DNA from: an uncultured Alphaproteobacteria bacterium
GTDB lineage: Bacteria > Pseudomonadota > Alphaproteobacteria > Rhizobiales > Beijerinckiaceae
Direction of reading: 5' to 3'
Assembly (NCBI GenBank): GCA_963713695.1
Contig: CAVQMU010000002.1
Location: 564,041-628,040, forward strand
DNA: 64,000 bases
Part shown: positions 9,650 to 50,400 of the stretch, one piece after another
Numbering within the stretch: the stretch's first letter is position 1
Layout: every line of letters starts with the position of its first letter
The notes under the pieces: model-generated
The model's input: only the letters and a program-made list of their open reading frames with translations
Told to the model about the DNA's origin: nothing
Databases searched by the model: none
Made by a program: the position numbers and the translations under genes

Positions 9650-10471
9650 TCAGCCGGAAAGTTCGCCCGCGCGCCGCGCCGCCGCTTCCGTCGCCCGCGC
9701 CATCAGGGCGGCGAGGCCGTCCGGGGCCATCAGCGCTTCGAGCGCCGCCTGCGTCGTGCCGCCGGGCGAGGTGACGTTTTTCCGCAAGGTTTCGGCTGAG
9801 GTTTCGGGCTGGAGGCGCAGTAATTCGCCCGAGCCCTCGACGGTCTTTCGCGCCAATCGCAGCGCCAGGTCCTGCGGCAGGCCGAGCGCCGCGCCGGCCT
9901 GCGCGAGCGCTTCGACGAGATAAAAGACATAGGCGGGGCCGGAGCCGGAAATCGCCGTCACCGCGTCGATCAGCCCTTCGAACTCAACCCATTCGACCGC
10001 GCCGACGCCGCCAAGCAGCAGATCGGCCTGATTCCGCTGCGCTTGCGATGTGGCGGCGCTGGCGAAGGCGCCGGTGATGCCGCGTCCGATCGCCGCGGGC
10101 GTGTTCGGCATGGCGCGGACGATGGAGGCAACGGGGAGGCGCGCCGAGAGATTGGCGATGGTCTTGCCGGCGAGGATGGATATGAGCAGGCTCCCCGTCG
10201 CAAACAACGGGGCCAGCGCGCTGGCGGAGGCGTCGAGCATCTGCGGCTTGATCGCCAGGACCACCACGTCGCTCGGCCTCGGCTCCGGGTTGAGCGCAAA
10301 TCCATTCGTCGCGGCGAGAGACGCGATCGCCTCGGAGGGATGCGGTTCGAAGACGGCGATGCCCCTGGCGTCTATGCCCGAGGCGAGCCAGCCGCCAAGC
10401 AGGGCCGCGCCCATCTTTCCTGCGCCGACAAGAGCGAGCGACGATTGCGCAATCGGGTCACGCGCGGACAT
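9650..10471 (-). CDS. proC: pyrroline-5-carboxylate reductase
   Basis: LALVGAGKMGAALL…VVLAIKPQ…ISGSGPAYVFYLVEAL…GGTTQAALEAL. Start ATG at 10469-10471 overlaps the ybjN stop (TAATG). Confidence 0.9.
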   Translation of the reverse strand: MSARDPIAQSSLALVGAGKMGAALLGGWLASGIDARGIAVFEPHPSEAIASLAATNGFALNPEPRPSDVVVLAIKPQMLDASASALAPLFATGSLLISILAGKTIANLSARLPVASIVRAMPNTPAAIGRGITGAFASAATSQAQRNQADLLLGGVGAVEWVEFEGLIDAVTAISGSGPAYVFYLVEALAQAGAALGLPQDLALRLARKTVEGSGELLRLQPETSAETLRKNVTSPGGTTQAALEALMAPDGLAALMARATEAAARRAGELSG

Positions 10472-14519: not shown

Positions 14520-14722
14520 AAGCAACCGCGCAGGGGTCGCGAACGCAAGCGAAGCAATGCCAGGAGATGCCCGCATTGCGTCCGTGTAGTCTGCGGAACC
14601 ATGCAATATCTTACGCGTTCAGTCAGTCCACGAGGGCGGCGTTCGCACATTATATTTTTATGCTGTAGTAAATCTGTGACTTGAGCGATGTGATCGCCCT
14701 CCAGAGTTCATGGAGGTCTTGC

Positions 14723-15550
14723 ATGACATTCAAATCCGCCACTGCTTTGGCTGGCGTTCTGCTGGCCGCCTCGGGCTTGAGCGCCTTGGCTCGCCCGGGC
14801 GTGACCTCGACCGACTCAAATCTGCGCAGCGGACCGGGCGTTGAAAGCCCTGTCGTCAGCGTTCTCCCCGCGGGAACGCCGATTGACGTCGGCCGATGCG
14901 CTGGAAGTTGGTGCCGCGTCCGCGCCGAGGGCGGGGCGGGCTATCTGTCCCGCTCGCTGATCGCCTTCGGTGGGGCGCCGGGACGGGCCATCGGGCGCGT
15001 CGACGGCGGGGCGACCGCCTATCCCGGCGACGACTACGCCAACAATGGCTACGGCTACGACAATTCGAGCTACGGCTACGACAATTACGGCTACGGCTAC
15101 GGCGATGGCTATGACTACGGCCCGGATGTCGGGATAGGCCTCGGTTTCTATGACGGCGGCGGTCGTGGCTATCGGCGTGGAGAGAACGGCGGCCAGTATG
15201 CTGGGGAACGTGGCGTCCGTGTTCGGCATGGAGGGAACGGCGGCCAACTTGCCGAGAGACGTGGCGTTCGTGGCGGCGCTCCTGCCGGCGGCGGCGCGGG
15301 TCGAGGTCCTGTGGCGGCCGATTCCGGCTCCTTCGATCGTGGCGGTCCGGCCAGGACAAGCAAGCCTGCGGCAGTTGGCGGCGGCGCTCCTGCCGGCGGC
15401 GGCGCGGACCGTGGTCCTGTGGCGGCCGATCCCGGCTCCTTCGATCGTGGCGGCGCGGGCAGGACAAGCAAGCCTGCGGCGGCTGGCGGCGGGTTCCACG
15501 GCGGCGGCGGTCACGGCGGCAGGCGTCCGGGTGGCGGCGAAGTCCGCTAG
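14723..15550 (+). CDS. secreted bacterial SH3-domain protein with Tyr/Gly-rich and Gly-rich repetitive C-terminal region
   Basis: Signal peptide MTFKSATALAGVLLAASGLSALA with a GGAGG Shine-Dalgarno 7 nt upstream. SH3_3-like GVTSTDSNLRSGPGVESPVVSVLPAGTPIDVGRCAGSWCRV. Then YGYDNSSYGYDNYGYGYGDGYDYG and Gly-rich repeats. Confidence 0.8.
   Translation: MTFKSATALAGVLLAASGLSALARPGVTSTDSNLRSGPGVESPVVSVLPAGTPIDVGRCAGSWCRVRAEGGAGYLSRSLIAFGGAPGRAIGRVDGGATAYPGDDYANNGYGYDNSSYGYDNYGYGYGDGYDYGPDVGIGLGFYDGGGRGYRRGENGGQYAGERGVRVRHGGNGGQLAERRGVRGGAPAGGGAGRGPVAADSGSFDRGGPARTSKPAAVGGGAPAGGGADRGPVAADPGSFDRGGAGRTSKPAAAGGGFHGGGGHGGRRPGGGEVR
15268..15480 (+). repeat. two tandem ~105-bp (35-aa) repeats inside the SH3-protein gene
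   Basis: …GGAPAGGGAGRGPVAADSGSFDRGGPARTSKPAAV / GGAPAGGGADRGPVAADPGSFDRGGAGRTSKPAAA… nearly identical at the DNA level. Confidence 0.6.
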
Positions 15551-15596: not shown

Positions 15597-16049
15597 TCAG
15601 CCCGCGAGGGCGGCCTTGACCAGGCCGCTGGCCTTGCCAAAATCCATCTTGCCCGAGTGCTGGGCCTTCAGCACAGCGATGACTTTGCCCATGTCCTTGA
15701 TCGAGGCGGCGCCCGTCTCGGCGATGGCGGCATGAATCGCGGCGGACACCTCCTCGTCGCTCATCGGCTGCGGCAGGAAGCTCGTGATGATGGCGATTTC
15801 CTCGCGCTCCTGCGCGGCGAGTTCCGGGCGGGCGTTCTTCTCGTAGATGTCCATCAATTCCTGGCGGCTTTTCACCAGTTTCTGCAGCAGGGCGAGAATT
15901 TCGTCCTCGCCCATTTCCTTGCCCGAGGTGCGGGCTTCGATATCCTTGTCCTTCAGGGCGGCGGTGATCATCCGGATGGTTTCGACGCGGCGTTTTTCGC
16001 CCGCCTTCATCGCCAGCTTGAGTTCAGAGGTGAATTTTTCGCGCAACAT
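15597..16049 (-). CDS. yqeY: GatB/YqeY-domain protein
   Basis: MLREKFTSELKLAMKAGEKRRVETIRMITAALKDKDIEAR…; the longer ORF to 16160 is an upstream extension. Confidence 0.85.
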   Translation of the reverse strand: MLREKFTSELKLAMKAGEKRRVETIRMITAALKDKDIEARTSGKEMGEDEILALLQKLVKSRQELMDIYEKNARPELAAQEREEIAIITSFLPQPMSDEEVSAAIHAAIAETGAASIKDMGKVIAVLKAQHSGKMDFGKASGLVKAALAG

Positions 16050-16063
16050 GATGATTGTCCGTT

Positions 16064-16266
16064 GGGTTGAGCCGGATTGAAGGGGCTTTGCAAGGCAAAG
16101 CCGGGGTTGGCGGGCTTTGGAAGTCCGAAGCCTGGGGTTAGCGAGGCTTTGGAAGTCCAAAGCCTGGGGTTAGCGAGGCTTTGGAAGTCCAAAGCCTGGG
16201 GTTAGCGAGGCTTTGGAAGTCCAAAGCCTGGGGTTGACGGGGCTTTGGAAGTCCAAAGCCTGGGGT
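16064..16266. repeat. about 6.3 tandem copies of a 32-bp unit (GGCTTTGGAAGTCCAAAGCCTGGGGTTAGCGA), each with an 8-bp-stem hairpin, in the yqeY/carA divergent intergenic region
   Basis: Period measured as 32 nt (16145 to 16177). The stem GGCTTTGG/CCAAAGCC recurs in every copy. The first copy carries compensatory changes (GGCTTTGC…GCAAAGCC) that preserve pairing. Confidence 0.8.
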
Positions 16267-16384
16267 TGACGGGGTAAAACCGCTCGCCTAGCTTGCGCGC
16301 AGTTTCAGACCCCCTTAAATGCAGACAGCCGCAAACGCCTCGGTCGAGGCGTGAAGTCGTGCGCAAATCTGTAGAGCGAGCAAG

Positions 16385-17578
16385 ATGCAGGATCAAGCCA
16401 AAGCCTCCGGATGGGAAAAACCGGTTCCGACCGCGCTGCTCGTATTGGCCGACGGAACGGTGATCGAGGGTTTTGGTTTCGGCGCGCCCGGCAAGGCGGT
16501 TGGCGAGGTCTGCTTCAACACCGCCATGACCGGCTATCAGGAAATCCTCACGGACCCCTCCTATGCCGGGCAGATCGTCACTTTCACCTTCCCGCATATC
16601 GGCAATGTCGGCGCCAATGACGAGGACGTCGAAACCGTCGATTTCTCTCGTGTCTTCGGCGCGCGCGGCGTGATCGTGCAGGCGCCCGTCACCGAGCCCT
16701 CGAATTTCCGGTCGCAGAAAACTTTCGACGCCTGGCTCAAGATGCGCGGCATCATCGGCCTCTGCGGCATCGACACGCGCGCCCTGACGGCCATGATCCG
16801 CGAAAAGGGCATGCCGAACGCCGTCATCGCCTATGCGCCGGACGGCCAGTTCGACGTCGACGCGCTCAAGCGCGAAGCGGCGGGCTGGCCGGGCATCGAC
16901 GGGATGGACCTCGTCCCGGGCGTCACCGCGCACGAGAATTACGCCTGGAGCGAGACGACCTGGCGGCTCGGCGACGGTTTCGGCCGTCAGCAGGCGGCCC
17001 GCTTCAAGGTGGTGGCCCTCGATTTCGGCGTGAAGCGCAACATCCTGCGCCTGCTGGCCGAAGCCGGCTGCGACGTGAGGGTCGTTCCGGCGACGGCCAG
17101 CGCCGAGCAAATCCTGGCGGAAAAGCCGGATGGCGTCTTCCTGTCGAACGGCCCCGGCGATCCTGCCGAAACCGGCAAATATGCCGTTCCGACCATCCAG
17201 AAAATCCTGGAAGCGAAAATCCCGACTTTCGGGATTTGCCTCGGCCACCAGATGATGGCCCTGGCGGTCGGAGCGAAGACGACCAAGATGCATCAGGGCC
17301 ACCATGGCGCCAATCACCCGGTCAAGGATTTCACGACCCACAAGGTCGAGATCGTCTCGATGAACCATGGTTTCGCGGTCGATCCCGCGAGCTTGCCGGC
17401 CAATGCCGTCGAGACGCACCAATCCCTGTTCGACGGATCGAATTGCGGCATTGCGCTCACCGACCGTCCGGCCTTCTCCGTGCAACATCATCCCGAGGCG
17501 TCGCCCGGCCCGCAGGACAGCCACTACCTCTTCGCGCGCTTCGTCGAAATGATGGAAAAGCACAAGGCGGCGGTCTGA
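16385..17578 (+). CDS. carA: carbamoyl-phosphate synthase small (glutamine amidotransferase) subunit
   Basis: …GEVCFNTAMTGYQEILTDPSYAGQIVTFT…GICLGHQMMALAVGAKT…HGANHPV…. Confidence 0.95.
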   Translation: MQDQAKASGWEKPVPTALLVLADGTVIEGFGFGAPGKAVGEVCFNTAMTGYQEILTDPSYAGQIVTFTFPHIGNVGANDEDVETVDFSRVFGARGVIVQAPVTEPSNFRSQKTFDAWLKMRGIIGLCGIDTRALTAMIREKGMPNAVIAYAPDGQFDVDALKREAAGWPGIDGMDLVPGVTAHENYAWSETTWRLGDGFGRQQAARFKVVALDFGVKRNILRLLAEAGCDVRVVPATASAEQILAEKPDGVFLSNGPGDPAETGKYAVPTIQKILEAKIPTFGICLGHQMMALAVGAKTTKMHQGHHGANHPVKDFTTHKVEIVSMNHGFAVDPASLPANAVETHQSLFDGSNCGIALTDRPAFSVQHHPEASPGPQDSHYLFARFVEMMEKHKAAV

Positions 17579-18634: not shown

Positions 18635-20557
18635 ATGAAATTCCCCCCGTCTTTCCTTGATGAAATCAGGGCGCGGCTTCCTGTTTCGGAGGTCGTCGGA
18701 CAGAGCGTCAAATTGAAGAAGCAGGGACGCGAGTGGATTGGCCTGTCGCCATTCAATGCGGAGAAGTCGCCCTCGTTCACCGTCAACGACCAAAAAGGCT
18801 TTTATCACGATTTCTCCTCTTCACGGCACGGCGACATCTTCAGTTTCGTGATGGAGACGCAGGGTCTCGGTTTTCCCGACGCGGTGGAAAAGCTTGCGGG
18901 CATGGCGGGGCTGGCGATGCCCACGGAAAGCCCGGAAGCCGCCGCGGTCGAGCGGCGCCGCGCCACGACGCTCGAAGCCGTGGAAATAGCTGCTTCGTTC
19001 TTCGAGCAGCAATTGCGCGGCCCGGCTGGCGCCGCGGCGCGCGCCTATCTGACCGAGCGCGGCCTCGGGCAGGAGGCGCGCGAGAAATTTCGCCTCGGCT
19101 ATTCGCCCAGGGAGCGCTACGCCCTGCGCGATCACCTCGCTTCGAAAGGCTGCTCGGCCGAAACCATGATCGAGGCCGGGCTTTTGACGCACGGGCCGGA
19201 CATCAACGTCCCCTATGATTTTTTCCGCGACCGGCTGATGTTTCCGATCTGCGACAGAAGGGGGCGGCCCATTGCCTTCGGCGGGCGCGCGCTCGCCAAG
19301 GACGTGCAGCCGAAATACAAGAATTCTGCGGAGACCCCGCTGTTTCACAAGGGCTCGAACCTCTACAACCTGCATTATGCAAGAGAAGCCGCCCAGTCTC
19401 GCGGCACGGTGATCGCGGTCGAGGGCTATGTGGACGTCATCGCCATGGACATGGCTGGCCACAAGAATGTCGTCGCCGGCCTCGGCACGGCCCTGACGGC
19501 AGACCAGTGCGAGTTGCTCTGGAAAATGGCCGAAGAGCCGACGCTCTGCTTTGACGGCGACAAAGCCGGGCGAAAGGCGGCTTTCCGCGCGGTCGACACG
19601 GCCCTGCCGCTGATCGGGGCAGGCAAAAGCCTGCGCTTTGCGCTCCTGCCGGAAGGGCAGGACCCGGACGATCTCGCCCGCAGCGGCGGCGGCGCGGCGA
19701 TCCAGGCCGTGCTCGATGCAAGCAAGCCATTGGCGGAAATGCTGTTTTTGCGCGAGGCGGAAGCGCAGCCGCTCGATACGCCGGAACGTCGCGCGGCGCT
19801 GGAGCGACGCCTGCGCGACAGCGCCGCCCTCATTCGCGACGAAGTGCTGCGAAGGCATTATTTCGACGACTTCCGCGACAGGCTTTCACAGCTTTTCGGC
19901 CGGACGCGGCAGAGCGGCCAGAATCGCAACTTTTCGCGGCAGGATGGGCGCTTCCGTCAAGGTGGACGCCTGCAGCAAGACGGCGGAAATTTTTCGCGAA
20001 GCCCGCTCGCGCCGAGTTCCGCCCTGTTGCAATCCAACCTCTTCGCGGCTCGGAAAGAGGCGCCGGCGGCCCGGGAGACCCTGATTCTGGCCTTGCTGCT
20101 CAATCATCCCCCGCTGATCGGGCGACACGCCGAGGACATATCCCGGCTGGAATTTTCCAGCGAAGGCGCGGGCCGCTTGCGCGACGCCCTGCTCGGGCTC
20201 GATGAGCCCGAGCTTGAGCCGCGCGATTTGCACGAAAAACTTCTTTTGCGGGGATTCGAGGGTTTTTTGACGAGCCTCGGCCAAAATGCCACAATTTCGA
20301 CATTATGGTGCGTGAGGCCCGATGCGCACGAAAACGACGCGGATGAGGTGTTGCGGCAGGCCTTGGCCTTGCATCATAAACAGCGGGCGTTAAATAGGGA
20401 GTTGCGTCTGGCCGAGACGGTTCTTGCGGAAGAGCCGTCAGAGGCCAATTTCGCCGTTCTCGCAGACATCAGGGCGCAATTGTCGGCGCTTGAGGGCGCA
20501 GAGGCGACGATCGAAGGCTTTGGCGCGCATTCCGGCAGGGAAGACAAATCCGTCTGA
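18635..20557 (+). CDS. dnaG: DNA primase
   Basis: Zinc-binding and TOPRIM regions (…GLSPFNAEKSPSFTVNDQKGFYHDFSSSRHGDIFSF…; …IAVEGYVDVIAMDMAGH…CFDGDKAGRKAA…). Confidence 0.9.
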   Translation: MKFPPSFLDEIRARLPVSEVVGQSVKLKKQGREWIGLSPFNAEKSPSFTVNDQKGFYHDFSSSRHGDIFSFVMETQGLGFPDAVEKLAGMAGLAMPTESPEAAAVERRRATTLEAVEIAASFFEQQLRGPAGAAARAYLTERGLGQEAREKFRLGYSPRERYALRDHLASKGCSAETMIEAGLLTHGPDINVPYDFFRDRLMFPICDRRGRPIAFGGRALAKDVQPKYKNSAETPLFHKGSNLYNLHYAREAAQSRGTVIAVEGYVDVIAMDMAGHKNVVAGLGTALTADQCELLWKMAEEPTLCFDGDKAGRKAAFRAVDTALPLIGAGKSLRFALLPEGQDPDDLARSGGGAAIQAVLDASKPLAEMLFLREAEAQPLDTPERRAALERRLRDSAALIRDEVLRRHYFDDFRDRLSQLFGRTRQSGQNRNFSRQDGRFRQGGRLQQDGGNFSRSPLAPSSALLQSNLFAARKEAPAARETLILALLLNHPPLIGRHAEDISRLEFSSEGAGRLRDALLGLDEPELEPRDLHEKLLLRGFEGFLTSLGQNATISTLWCVRPDAHENDADEVLRQALALHHKQRALNRELRLAETVLAEEPSEANFAVLADIRAQLSALEGAEATIEGFGAHSGREDKSV

Positions 20558-22778: not shown

Positions 22779-22839
22779 TATCTGCTGGCGCCCGAAGGCA
22801 AAGGCCCCTAAATTGCGGTTGCGGCGCTGCGGGGTGCGT

Positions 22840-23110
22840 GAGGACATTTCCCCGGGGCCTTACGATCCCCTAGGGAGCTGTCCCTGTCTTGGTCCGTGGA
22901 CCTTGGCACATGGCGCCCACCTACTCTGTAGGTACCCGGGATCACGTCCCACGGCTTTTGTGGCCCGCACCCCCTCTCAGTTTCCCTTCTCCCCTTGCGG
23001 GAGAAGGTGGTCCGAAGGACCGGATGAGGGGACCTCGCGGCGCGTCCCCCTCATCCGTCTCGCCGCTGCGCGTCGATCCACCTTCTCCCGCGAGGGGAGA
23101 AGGGTTGCGC
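22840..23110. repeat. REP/MITE-like palindromic intergenic element (nested inverted repeats)
   Basis: CCTTCTCCCCTTGCGGGAGAAGGTGG … CCACCTTCTCCCGCGAGGGGAGAAGG and GGATGAGGGGAC … GTCCCCCTCATCC form nested palindromes. Such elements give spurious ORFs of the type …SPLAGEGGPKDRMRGP…, as in the listed ORFs 22889..23266 and the 5' part of 22813..23742. Confidence 0.5.
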
Positions 23111-47478: not shown

Positions 47479-50400
47479 TTAAACGAACTTGAATTGCGAG
47501 GCGACCAGGCTCGACATCTGAACATTCGTCAGGGTGACGCTATCGGACGCGTCGAGCGAGATCATAGTATTCGCGCCGGACTGATGCATGTGGCTCGAAC
47601 TCGAAAGCACGGACCAACTGGAAAAATCCGATTTGCTGAACTGGATGGTGTCAGACGCCACAAAGTCATTGACGGCGTTCACGCCGATGGCCGGCTGAAA
47701 CACGAGCGCGTCCGACGTTCCAAACAGCGACAGCGAGTTTGAGCCGTACAGGTCCAAAGTGTCGCCGGCGCCGGTCACCGAGGCCTGGGCGCTGTTCACG
47801 TAGATCGTTCCGTTCGATGCGCCGACCGAATCCCAGGCGCCGCCCGTATTGTAGAGGGCCAGCGCGTCGCTGGAATTGCCGTCCAGCGTGATCGTATCGC
47901 CGCCGCCGGAGACCGAGGTCTGCGCGCCATTGATGTAGACGGCGCTGTTCGAACCGATGACCGAGTCCCAGTTTCCGCCTGTTCCGTAAAGGCTCACGGC
48001 AATGCCCGAACCGCTGGCGAAATAGACGGCGTCGCCGCCGCCCTGGATCGCCGTCTGCGCGCTGTTCAGATAGATTGCGCCCTTCGATCCATAGACCCAG
48101 TCCCAGCTTCCACCGGTGTTGTAGAGGCTTGCGGCATTGCCAGTGCCGCCGGCGAAATAAGCCTTTTCGCCGCCGCCATAGATCGCGGCCTGCGCGCCGG
48201 TCAGATAGATGGTTCCGCCGCTTGCATAGACAGTGTCCCAAATCCCCTGGCTGTAGTAGAGGCTCAAATCGTTATTTGAACCGCTGCTGAAGGCGATGGC
48301 GTCGCCGCCGCCCTGGACCGCAGCCTGTGCGCTGTTCAGATAGACCGATCCGTCGGACCCATAGACCCAGTCCCAGTTTCCGCCGGTATTGTAGAGCCCC
48401 GCAGCATTGCCGGAGCCGCTTGAGAAATTGATTGTTTCGCCCCCGCCTTGGACCGCGGCCTGCGCGCTGTTCAGATAGACGGTTCCATTTGTTGCGTAGA
48501 CCCAGTCCCAATTGCCGCCGGTGGTGTAGAGGCTCGCCGCATTGCTCGCGCCGGAGACGAAAACGATGACGTCGCCGCCGCCCTGGATCGCCGCCTGCGC
48601 GCCGTTCAGATAGACATCGCCATTCGAGCCATAGACCCAGTCCCAGTTTCCGCCGGTGTTGTAGAGGCTGGCTGCATCGCCCGAACCGCCGGCCAGATAG
48701 ACGGTGTCGCCGCCGCCATACACTGTGGCTTGGGCGCCATCGAGTTTGACGACGCCGCCGGAGCCGTTCACCTGATCCCAGTCGCCAGAGGTATTGTTGA
48801 GGTTCGCAAGGTCTCCCGAGGCGTTGGGGAAGTTCACGGTCACTCCGCCGCCGTTATCGGTGACGGCCGCGCCTGCCGCGTAGAGATTGATATCGGTTCC
48901 GCCCTGGCCGTCGGAGGAAAGGATGAAGTTCAGGCCTGCGTAATTGACGGTCGGATCGAGATTCACCTCGTAGGTCGCGCCATTGGCGACAATTTCGAGG
49001 ACATTTCCGGCGAGCAAGGTCGCGGAGCCGATTCCGTTGTACGCCACGCCGCGGAGATCGATCGTTTGCTGCACGGCCAGGGTGAAGCCAGCGACGACGT
49101 TCGTCGGCATGGCCGTCCCGTCGATCTGCAGCGTGGTCAGGCCGCCCCTGAAGGTGACGTCGCCGCTACCCTCGGACTGCGGCGTGGCAAGCTCCAGCGT
49201 GCCCAGCTCGATCGTCACGCCGCCGGTGAAAGTGTTTTGCGCGTCGAGCGTCAGCACGCCGGCGCCGTCGAGGGTCAGGCTTCCAGAGCCGGTCTGGCCG
49301 CTGGCGTCCTTTGACCCGGTCATGTCGGTTATGACATCGGAAATGGTTTCCGTCTGGCCGGCCGCGGGGGCGAAGACGATATTCTGATTGCCCTGGAGGA
49401 AAATGCCGGAGCCATAGGCCTGGCCATTGCCGCTGCCAGTGTTGCCCAGTCCGGCTGTGACCGAGCCTCCGGATAAGGAGCCGCCGTCAACAGTCAGCGC
49501 CGCGCCGCCCTGGACAAAAATACCGCCGCCCGCGCCGAGGCCGCCGCCGCCGCCTTTGCCCTCGCCGGAAGAGCCGCCGCCGAAGCCGCCAGAGACGGTT
49601 CCGGACGATGTGGCGCTGGCGCCGGCGCCGCCTCCGAAGCCGCCCACGCCGCCGCTGTTCCAAAAACTTCCGCCGCCGCCGCCGCCGAAACCTCCAGCGC
49701 CGCCGCCGACGGAGGAGCCGTTGACATAGCCGCCTAGCGTGCCCCCGCCGCCGCCGCCGAAGCCGCCAGCGCCTCCACCCGTGGCTCCATTGGCGCCGTC
49801 AACGCCACCGCCGCCCCCGCTGCCGCCCCCGCCGGCGCCCCCAGCGCCTCCCGAGGCGCCTCCCGCGGTATAACCGGATCCGCCTCCTGACGCTCCCGCC
49901 ACGATACCGGCCGCGGAGGGCGATCCACCGGATGACGCGTTCGCGTCAATGCCTCCGCCTCCGCTATCTGCGCCCCCATTGCCGCCCAAACCGCCGCCGC
50001 CGCCAAAATTGGCGATTCCGCTTCCAACGCCGCCTCCGGCTCCGCCGACGGCAGAATCGGCGCTGAAGACGACGCTGTCGAGCGTCACATTGGCCGGCGC
50101 AGCGCCGTCGGCGGAATCATTCGCCACGAACAATCCGCCGCCAAGGCCAGCGCCGCCGCCTCCGCTTGCTCCATTTGTCGAATTATCGCCGGAACCGCCC
50201 GCGCCGCCGACCGCCGCCGCGTTCGAAGATCGTCAAATTTTCAATGGTGACATTGCCTGAATAGACAAAAAATCCGCGAAAGGCGCCGGCGCCATTCAGG
50301 GTCGCGCCTGCGCCATTGATGGTCAGCGTGTCCCCGCCCTTGAGATTGATGGCTTCGAGATCGGCGGCTTCCGTCAGCGTCGCCCCGGCGCTGAGGGTAA

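Follow-up and report, generated by a model that had tools for sequence, protein, structure and literature searches.

The tandem array at positions 16084-16267 of the window, by which we mean the whole stretch of 64,000 nucleotides that was analysed, is in our judgement probably a young, lineage-restricted and unstable hairpin minisatellite confined to a single locus, that is, a VNTR of the promoter or leader tandem-repeat type that occupies the yqeY leader and the region upstream of carA. It looks like an element of a few closely related soil or peat bacteria, and a new regulatory system is disfavoured. The copies stand head to tail at one locus, their number varies in close strains, and relatives carry the corresponding empty site. 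If this reading is right, the locus offers an ordinary but cleanly documented case of the birth and turnover of a bacterial minisatellite, with amplification, homogenisation and precise loss all taking place inside the control region of two housekeeping genes.

Anatomy and genomic setting of the array

Tandem Repeats Finder assigns the array a period of 32, 5.8 copies, 92% matches and a score of 298. Each 32-bp unit combines a 20-nt palindrome, GGCTTTGG-AAGT-CCAAAGCC, with a 12-nt spacer. A scan of the window located the exact 20-mer, GGCTTTGGAAGTCCAAAGCC, at 16145, 16177, 16209 and 16241 and a one-mismatch copy at 16113; shuffled windows contained no match to the 20-mer.

Read from the yqeY side, and with features given without strand, the array is preceded at 16064-16083 by degenerate spacer remnants, GGGTTGAGCC and GGATTGAAGG, the second of which is the reverse complement of CCTTCAATCC, the spacer type of the lineage that includes contig L004. 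Copy 1 (16084-16102), the yqeY-proximal and oldest-looking one, forms the hairpin GGCTTTGC-AAG-GCAAAGCC, in which the closing pair is flipped to C:G and the loop is reduced to 3 nt; it is followed by the 10-nt spacer GGGGTTGGCG (16103-16112). Copy 2 (16113-16132), GGCTTTGG-AAGT-CCGAAGCC, carries a single arm substitution, an A-to-G change that yields G.U on the + strand and a C.A mismatch on the - strand, and that is also present in L003, a 99%-identical relative. Copies 3-5 (16133-16240) comprise exact hairpins at 16145-16164, 16177-16196 and 16209-16228, with the spacer TGGGGTTAGCGA three times and TGGGGTTGACGG once. Copy 6, the carA-proximal one, is again the exact hairpin GGCTTTGGAAGTCCAAAGCC (16241-16260) and is followed at 16261-16272 by the original flank, TGGGGTTGACGG, which is the source of the spacer copies and abuts GGCG directly in array-free relatives.

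The unit tables of the window and its relatives share one architecture, (flank copy + hairpin)n + flank copy: a flank copy, (C)CGTCAACCCC(A), precedes every hairpin, a further degenerate flank copy closes the array, and all units are oriented head to tail. Start-to-start spacing takes the values 29, 30, 31 and 32 bp, both within and between lineages, and the loops found among the units are AAGT, AAGG, AAG and CTAG. In the canonical copy an 8-bp stem closes a 4-nt loop (-11.9 kcal/mol as RNA, -7.2 as DNA), and the variant copy 1 folds to an 8-bp stem as well (-10.7 kcal/mol). The initial annotation, which had described a tandem array of hairpin-forming palindromes with a variant first copy, is borne out in these respects, and its start of the array at about 16064 agrees with the footprint once the degenerate spacer remnants are included.

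The array was also correctly placed in a divergent control region, as Pfam identifies both genes concerned: yqeY (15597-16049, - strand), which encodes a GatB/YqeY family protein of 150 aa (Pfam YqeY, E-value 9e-46), and carA (16385-17578, + strand), which encodes the small chain of carbamoyl-phosphate synthase with its GATase domain (397 aa, Pfam match). Since the two genes diverge, the 335-bp gap between them (16050-16384) must hold both promoters. The neighbouring genes are yqeY, carA, an SH3-domain gene, panB and dnaG, and no regulator gene adjoins the locus in the window or in relatives. The array begins 35 bp upstream of the yqeY ATG at 16049, a distance too short for a promoter and a ribosome-binding site, so that it is most likely transcribed within the yqeY leader. 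The yqeY transcript would thus probably begin on the far side of the array and run through it on the - strand, and up to six stable hairpins would be added to the 5' leader.

Promoter-like sites were read from an alignment of eight orthologous loci with the arrays masked, and they carry no tool score. The block TTGCGC-N17-TAAATG in carA sense (16293-16321, + strand) is conserved in all eight aligned loci, including array-free ones such as L009 and L010, and the array lies upstream of it. A further carA-sense site, TTGACG-N17-TAGCTT (16266-16294, + strand), is conserved only in the closer relatives and may be a second promoter; its -35-like box, TTGACG, is the very sequence that the spacers duplicate. 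A consensus scan of 15900-16500 for promoters and terminators gave no match, and the yqeY promoter was likewise not found by consensus. On these predictions the array would be separate from the conserved core promoter of carA, at some 65-250 bp upstream from the start predicted for this gene.

Several other features of the region deserve mention in their own right. A carA leader hairpin, CGCCTC-GGTC-GAGGCG (16336-16351, + strand), stands 3' of the TAAATG block in all eight loci; its loop varies among them, L009 has one two-sided stem change (CGCCTTC...GAAGGCG), and the element may be a pyrimidine- or arginine-responsive leader. At 16231-16275 (+ strand) the duplication of the flank yields four G4 runs, GGGG-TTGAC-GGGG, the hairpin and GGGG-TTGAC-GGGG, a G-quadruplex-like motif with the hairpin as a long loop; similar G runs occur in L016 and partly in L004. 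Codons 4-7 of carA (16396-16405, + strand) hold GCCAAAGCCT, which repeats the right arm of the unit extended by one base. The match is 9 nt long in the window, reaches 10 nt in the lineages of L004 and L016, and has an estimated chance of about 0.01; it makes - strand RNA of the array partly antisense to the carA start region, and it may mark a local template from which the palindrome originated.

Repeats also occur elsewhere in the window. The SH3-domain gene (14681-15550, + strand) has internal coding repeats, namely 21-bp units of low complexity (GYGYDN type) and two copies of a 108-bp unit (15272-15492), and relatives encode a much shorter version of 139 aa. A long tandem repeat at 47897-48738, with periods of 135 and 270 bp, about six copies and 70-73% identity, is probably a repeated protein domain. 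Coding potential of the hairpin array was rejected, because its 32-bp period is not a multiple of 3; the ORFs that cross it are gene-caller artefacts.

Distribution and turnover among relatives

In order to compare orthologous loci, the yqeY-carA spacer was taken from 13 contigs and set in one orientation. YqeY homologues place the window near Rhodoblastus. The array is found at the identical insertion point in three lineages: the window and L003, with 6 units and the loop ACTT in yqeY sense; L004-L008 and L012, with 4, at least 4, 5, 5, 4 and 6 units, respectively, and the loop CCTT in the same sense; and L016, with 4 units and a period of about 31 bp. The comparison of copy number between strains, which had been proposed along with the initial annotation, shows differences among L004, L006, L007 and L012, whose yqeY genes are 100% identical and which yet carry 4, 5, 5 and 6 units in their metagenome assemblies. 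The contigs L003 (1-108) and L005 (1-156) end inside the array, so that some of these copy-number differences could reflect assembly collapse; that L006 and L007, which come from different sources, agree exactly in the array counts against it. There is a practical warning in this, as short-read assemblies of metagenomes break or collapse at such arrays.

A clean empty site, CGTCAACCCC^GGCG, is present in five relatives (L017, L018, L019, P0040 and P0049). The DNA of the first three reads ...CCCCGTCAACCCC-GGCG... or ...GGTTTTACCCCGTCAACCCC-GGCG..., and P0040 and P0049 are over-called YqeY products that translate the empty site (PVNPG). The array is also absent from L009 and L010 (Rhodoblastus sp. 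17X3). A weakly supported neighbour-joining tree built on 453 nt of yqeY places the empty L018 beside L016, as its sister, inside the clade of array bearers. The history would be simplest with a single gain and a later, precise loss, separate gains being the alternative; as the flank copies are direct repeats, precise deletion back to the empty site is possible.

Interior units are identical within a lineage and different between lineages, a pattern of concerted evolution, and the edge units are degenerate. The yqeY-proximal remnants in the window, namely CCTTCAATCC and a CTT loop with the flipped closing pair, resemble the type found in L004 and L012, which suggests a shared old end of the array and a recent amplification on its carA side. 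Upstream of yqeY in L010, at the position of the array (9900-9990), a short motif of the CGCCAAGAGA type is directly repeated, and repeats may arise readily in this stretch in general.

We propose the following course of events. A perfect palindrome of 20-21 bp, (A)GGCTTTGG-NNNN-CCAAAGCC, would have lodged at CGTCAACCCC^GGCG, some 36 bp ahead of the start codon of yqeY, where it came to be bracketed by two copies of the roughly 10-bp sequence CGTCAACCCC. The unit of flank copy and hairpin would then have been amplified by slipped-strand mispairing or by unequal recombination between the direct repeats, a process that hairpin formation probably favoured. Whole units would be gained and lost quickly, interior copies would be homogenised in each lineage while edge copies decay, and recombination between the outermost flank copies could remove the array precisely. 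The predicted effect is probably a modest, copy-number-dependent change in the expression of yqeY and perhaps of carA, for which a dedicated trans-acting factor would not be required.

Possible constraint on the palindrome and alternative explanations

Among 16 distinct units, departures from the column majority amount to 9 of 224 positions in the arms and 39 of 160 in the spacers, a contrast that is rough, given an ungapped alignment of the spacers and units that depend on one another. If drift were purely neutral and evolution concerted, arms and spacers should be homogenised to the same extent, and the contrast therefore points to some constraint or to a repair bias acting on the palindrome. 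Recognition by a protein, a need for the hairpin, or hairpin-templated correction could each account for the low variability of the arms, which is the main observation that the neutral reading leaves unexplained.

One rival explanation is an operator array, a candidate that the initial annotation had also named, as a protein-binding array. In it, each 20-bp palindrome would bind a dimeric DNA-binding protein and several dimers would be loaded between the yqeY and carA promoters in order to repress or activate them. The half-sites are conserved in sequence, the centre (loops) and the spacers are free to vary, and there is almost no covariation, which is the pattern of a protein site and not of an RNA helix; the 8-bp arms surround a 4-bp centre, the 32-bp period corresponds to about three helical turns, and the array stands immediately upstream of the -35-like TTGACG box. 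We nonetheless regard this explanation as unlikely: five close relatives, with control regions of yqeY and carA that are otherwise alike, lack the array, the inconstant period (29, 30, 31 and 32 bp) provides no fixed helical phasing, and no cognate protein was found, with neither a regulator gene beside the locus nor a further site in the 64 kb, where operator-like sites elsewhere amounted to a chance-level match only. Separately, sigma-54, IHF, RutR and NtrC-type motifs were compared by eye and rejected on spacing or sequence.

A selected RNA structure appears improbable to a similar degree; the initial annotation had listed structured leader repeats among its candidates and had taken compensatory changes to imply selection on secondary structure. 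According to this explanation the tandem hairpins are kept by selection in a functional yqeY 5' leader, or in an antisense or upstream RNA for carA, where they might for example stabilise the mRNA against 5'-end-dependent decay or tune translation. Each unit does form a very stable hairpin (-11.9 kcal/mol), the geometry suggests that the array lies inside the yqeY leader, and the intergenic RNA of either strand folds much more stably than its shuffled versions (z about -6.8). Since both strands of a perfect DNA palindrome can form an equally good hairpin, these z-scores are no evidence of function. The covariation set comprised 10 distinct hairpin variants from three lineages. Among these, the loop-closing pair alone is changed on both sides (from G:C to C:G); there are four unpaired cells and, in yqeY sense, two G.U cells. 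The flip of the closing pair is found in two arrays, in copy 1 of the window and in one copy of L012, which may share ancestry; it was counted by hand, since MAFFT gapped copy 1 of the window at this pair. Covariation does not exceed the controls: each measure was reached by 85-225 of the 500 shuffles, and the observed score by 225. The mismatches do not favour either strand (in yqeY sense one C.A and one U.U, in carA sense two A.C), and with one pair changed on both sides the argument from compensatory changes is not supported; the covariation analysis across relatives that had been suggested as a check does no better than the shuffles. The absence of the array from close relatives also speaks against a selected RNA, as does the lack of a matching Rfam family: the best E-value for the array is 0.35, to a microRNA model and far below the gathering score. 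Across the whole window, the gathering threshold was passed by 6S RNA only, at another place; this SsrS gene lies at 22821-22969 (+ strand) and scores 54.5 bits (RF00013).

Either kind of function could be combined with the instability of the array. It is conceivable, if doubtful, that the array is a copy-number-tunable regulatory module, whose arms are bound by a putative dimeric protein or act as tandem leader hairpins, and in which gain and loss of 32-bp units provide a heritable and reversible dial on the expression of yqeY, carA or both. This would make it a contingency locus acting on housekeeping genes in a free-living peat alphaproteobacterium. As an added speculation, the GGGG-TTGAC-GGGG pairs and the several 9-10-nt copies identical to carA codons 4-7 could contribute a non-B-DNA or antisense component.

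Further copies of the hairpin were sought both around and beyond the locus. The 64-kb window contains no other copy, either with up to 3 mismatches or under the relaxed pattern GCTTTG-N4-7-CAAAGC, whose sole extra match (19548-19566) differs in its core and agrees with chance expectation; none flanks any other gene of the window, and none occurs in about 39 kb from array-bearing relatives. A dispersed family of 100 copies per 4 Mb would have placed about 2.5 copies in the sequence scanned, that is, the 64-kb window plus these 39 kb. In 185,579 species-representative genomes, a set that does not include the source genome, the exact 20-mer gave two Bacteroidales matches only, about the chance level; viral contigs gave 8 single matches, again near chance, and BLAST against plasmids and phages gave no match. 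The repeat is thus unique to this locus in the sequence scanned and is missing in five close relatives and in Rhodoblastus sp. 17X3, which is largely the outcome that the initial annotation had named as contrary to its own proposal.

A scan of metagenome contigs for two hairpins returned one contig of this locus (L012) and four unrelated ones (L011, L013, L014 and L015), which we attribute to the very large number of hairpin repeats in the metagenome collection. L013, an unrelated contig of about 43% G+C with ORFs that have no Pfam match, holds at 1450-1580 five 31-bp tandem units with the same 8-bp stem, GGCTTTGG/CCAAAGCC, the loop TCTA and the spacer ACACCAAAGAA; given the size of the collection, the likeness of the stem is taken to be a coincidence. 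On the high-G+C contigs L014 (927-980 and 3870-3915) and L015 (453-505), the palindrome GTGCTTTGGGCGCCCAAAGCAC occurs in pairs just past stop codons at three loci, which has the look of a true REP-like family, dispersed in a different organism.

These searches bear on a low-copy mobile palindrome, one of a transposase-spread family of the REP, REPIN or MITE type with the present locus as one cluster, comparable to a BIME. It is very unlikely: a 20-nt G+C-rich palindrome with an 8-bp stem and a 4-nt loop, as in the CGTC-1 REPs of Alphaproteobacteria (PMC3733652), a CGTC motif within the spacer, direct repeats flanking a clean empty site, and REP-like palindromes of similar core on the unrelated contigs L014 and L015 stand in its favour, but there is no second locus in the window or in the relatives' flanks, the exact 20-mer is missing from the species-representative genomes, the CGTC lies 6-7 nt off the stem and belongs to the pre-existing flank, and the stem starts G:C G:C instead of A:T and is followed by CCG, TCG or CCT instead of a CCA tail.

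Comparison with known systems

Like CRISPR arrays, the present array consists of short palindromic repeats at regular spacing. CRISPR was rejected, in line with the initial annotation. CRISPR spacers are unique and measure about 30-40 nt, while those of the array are repeated, flank-derived and 10-12 nt long; the period is about 60-70 bp in the former and 32 bp in the latter; and there are no cas genes nearby. The sopC centromere of the F plasmid and iteron arrays are built from tandem direct repeats, each of which contains a short inverted repeat with conserved arms, and in this they resemble the present array. Unlike these elements, it is chromosomal and lies between housekeeping genes with no partition or initiator gene nearby, its unit period varies, and it is missing in close relatives.

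A further system for comparison is BrickBuilt of Porphyromonas gingivalis, an intergenic minisatellite/MITE that is present 19 times per genome and has leader and tail subunits and inverted-repeat ends (PMC4596501). Both have units of about 23-32 bp, a limited host range and a location near promoters, whereas the present array is seen at one locus only and has no terminal inverted repeats.

REPs and BIMEs are similar in that they, too, are short G+C-rich extragenic palindromes with an 8-bp stem and a 4-nt loop, in clusters that can include copies of flanking DNA and that vary in size (PMC3733652; PMC2817692). REPs tagged with CGTC, with 8-9-bp stems and 4-5-nt loops, are typical of Alphaproteobacteria, and REPs in general are marked by a GTAG or CGTC tag that is unpaired and directly borders the stem, by A:T pairs at stem positions 1 and 2, and by a CCA tail (PMC3733652); the present stem has no adjoining tag, no basal A:T pairs and no such tail. 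REPs typically number more than 100 dispersed copies per genome, as against a single locus in the sequence scanned here, and a RAYT (Y1 transposase) gene flanked by REP repeats is a feature of such families. REP clusters alternate in orientation and lie downstream of genes, and CGTC REPs form mostly head-to-head dimers, whereas the present units are strictly head to tail and stand between divergent gene starts. The orientation, position and end motifs of the array are at odds with such elements, and in the sequence scanned the REP-like family put forward by the initial annotation finds no support.

Closest among the known kinds are intergenic or promoter tandem repeats that vary in copy number, such as the mycobacterial MIRU-VNTR loci and promoter tandem repeats. 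Variable promoter repeats of this sort have been described in M. tuberculosis (PMC12817950), and the likeness is close: head-to-tail units of tens of bp occupy a single intergenic locus, promoter-proximal sequence is part of what is duplicated (here the -35-like TTGACG), copy number varies among near-identical strains, and short-read assemblies break or collapse. The present unit differs in that it is built on a perfect palindrome with an 8-bp stem and is known here from its sequence alone, and its host is an uncultured Rhodoblastus-like alphaproteobacterium. If copy number does tune yqeY or carA, promoter-repeat phase variation, which is known mainly from pathogens, would extend to environmental Alphaproteobacteria.
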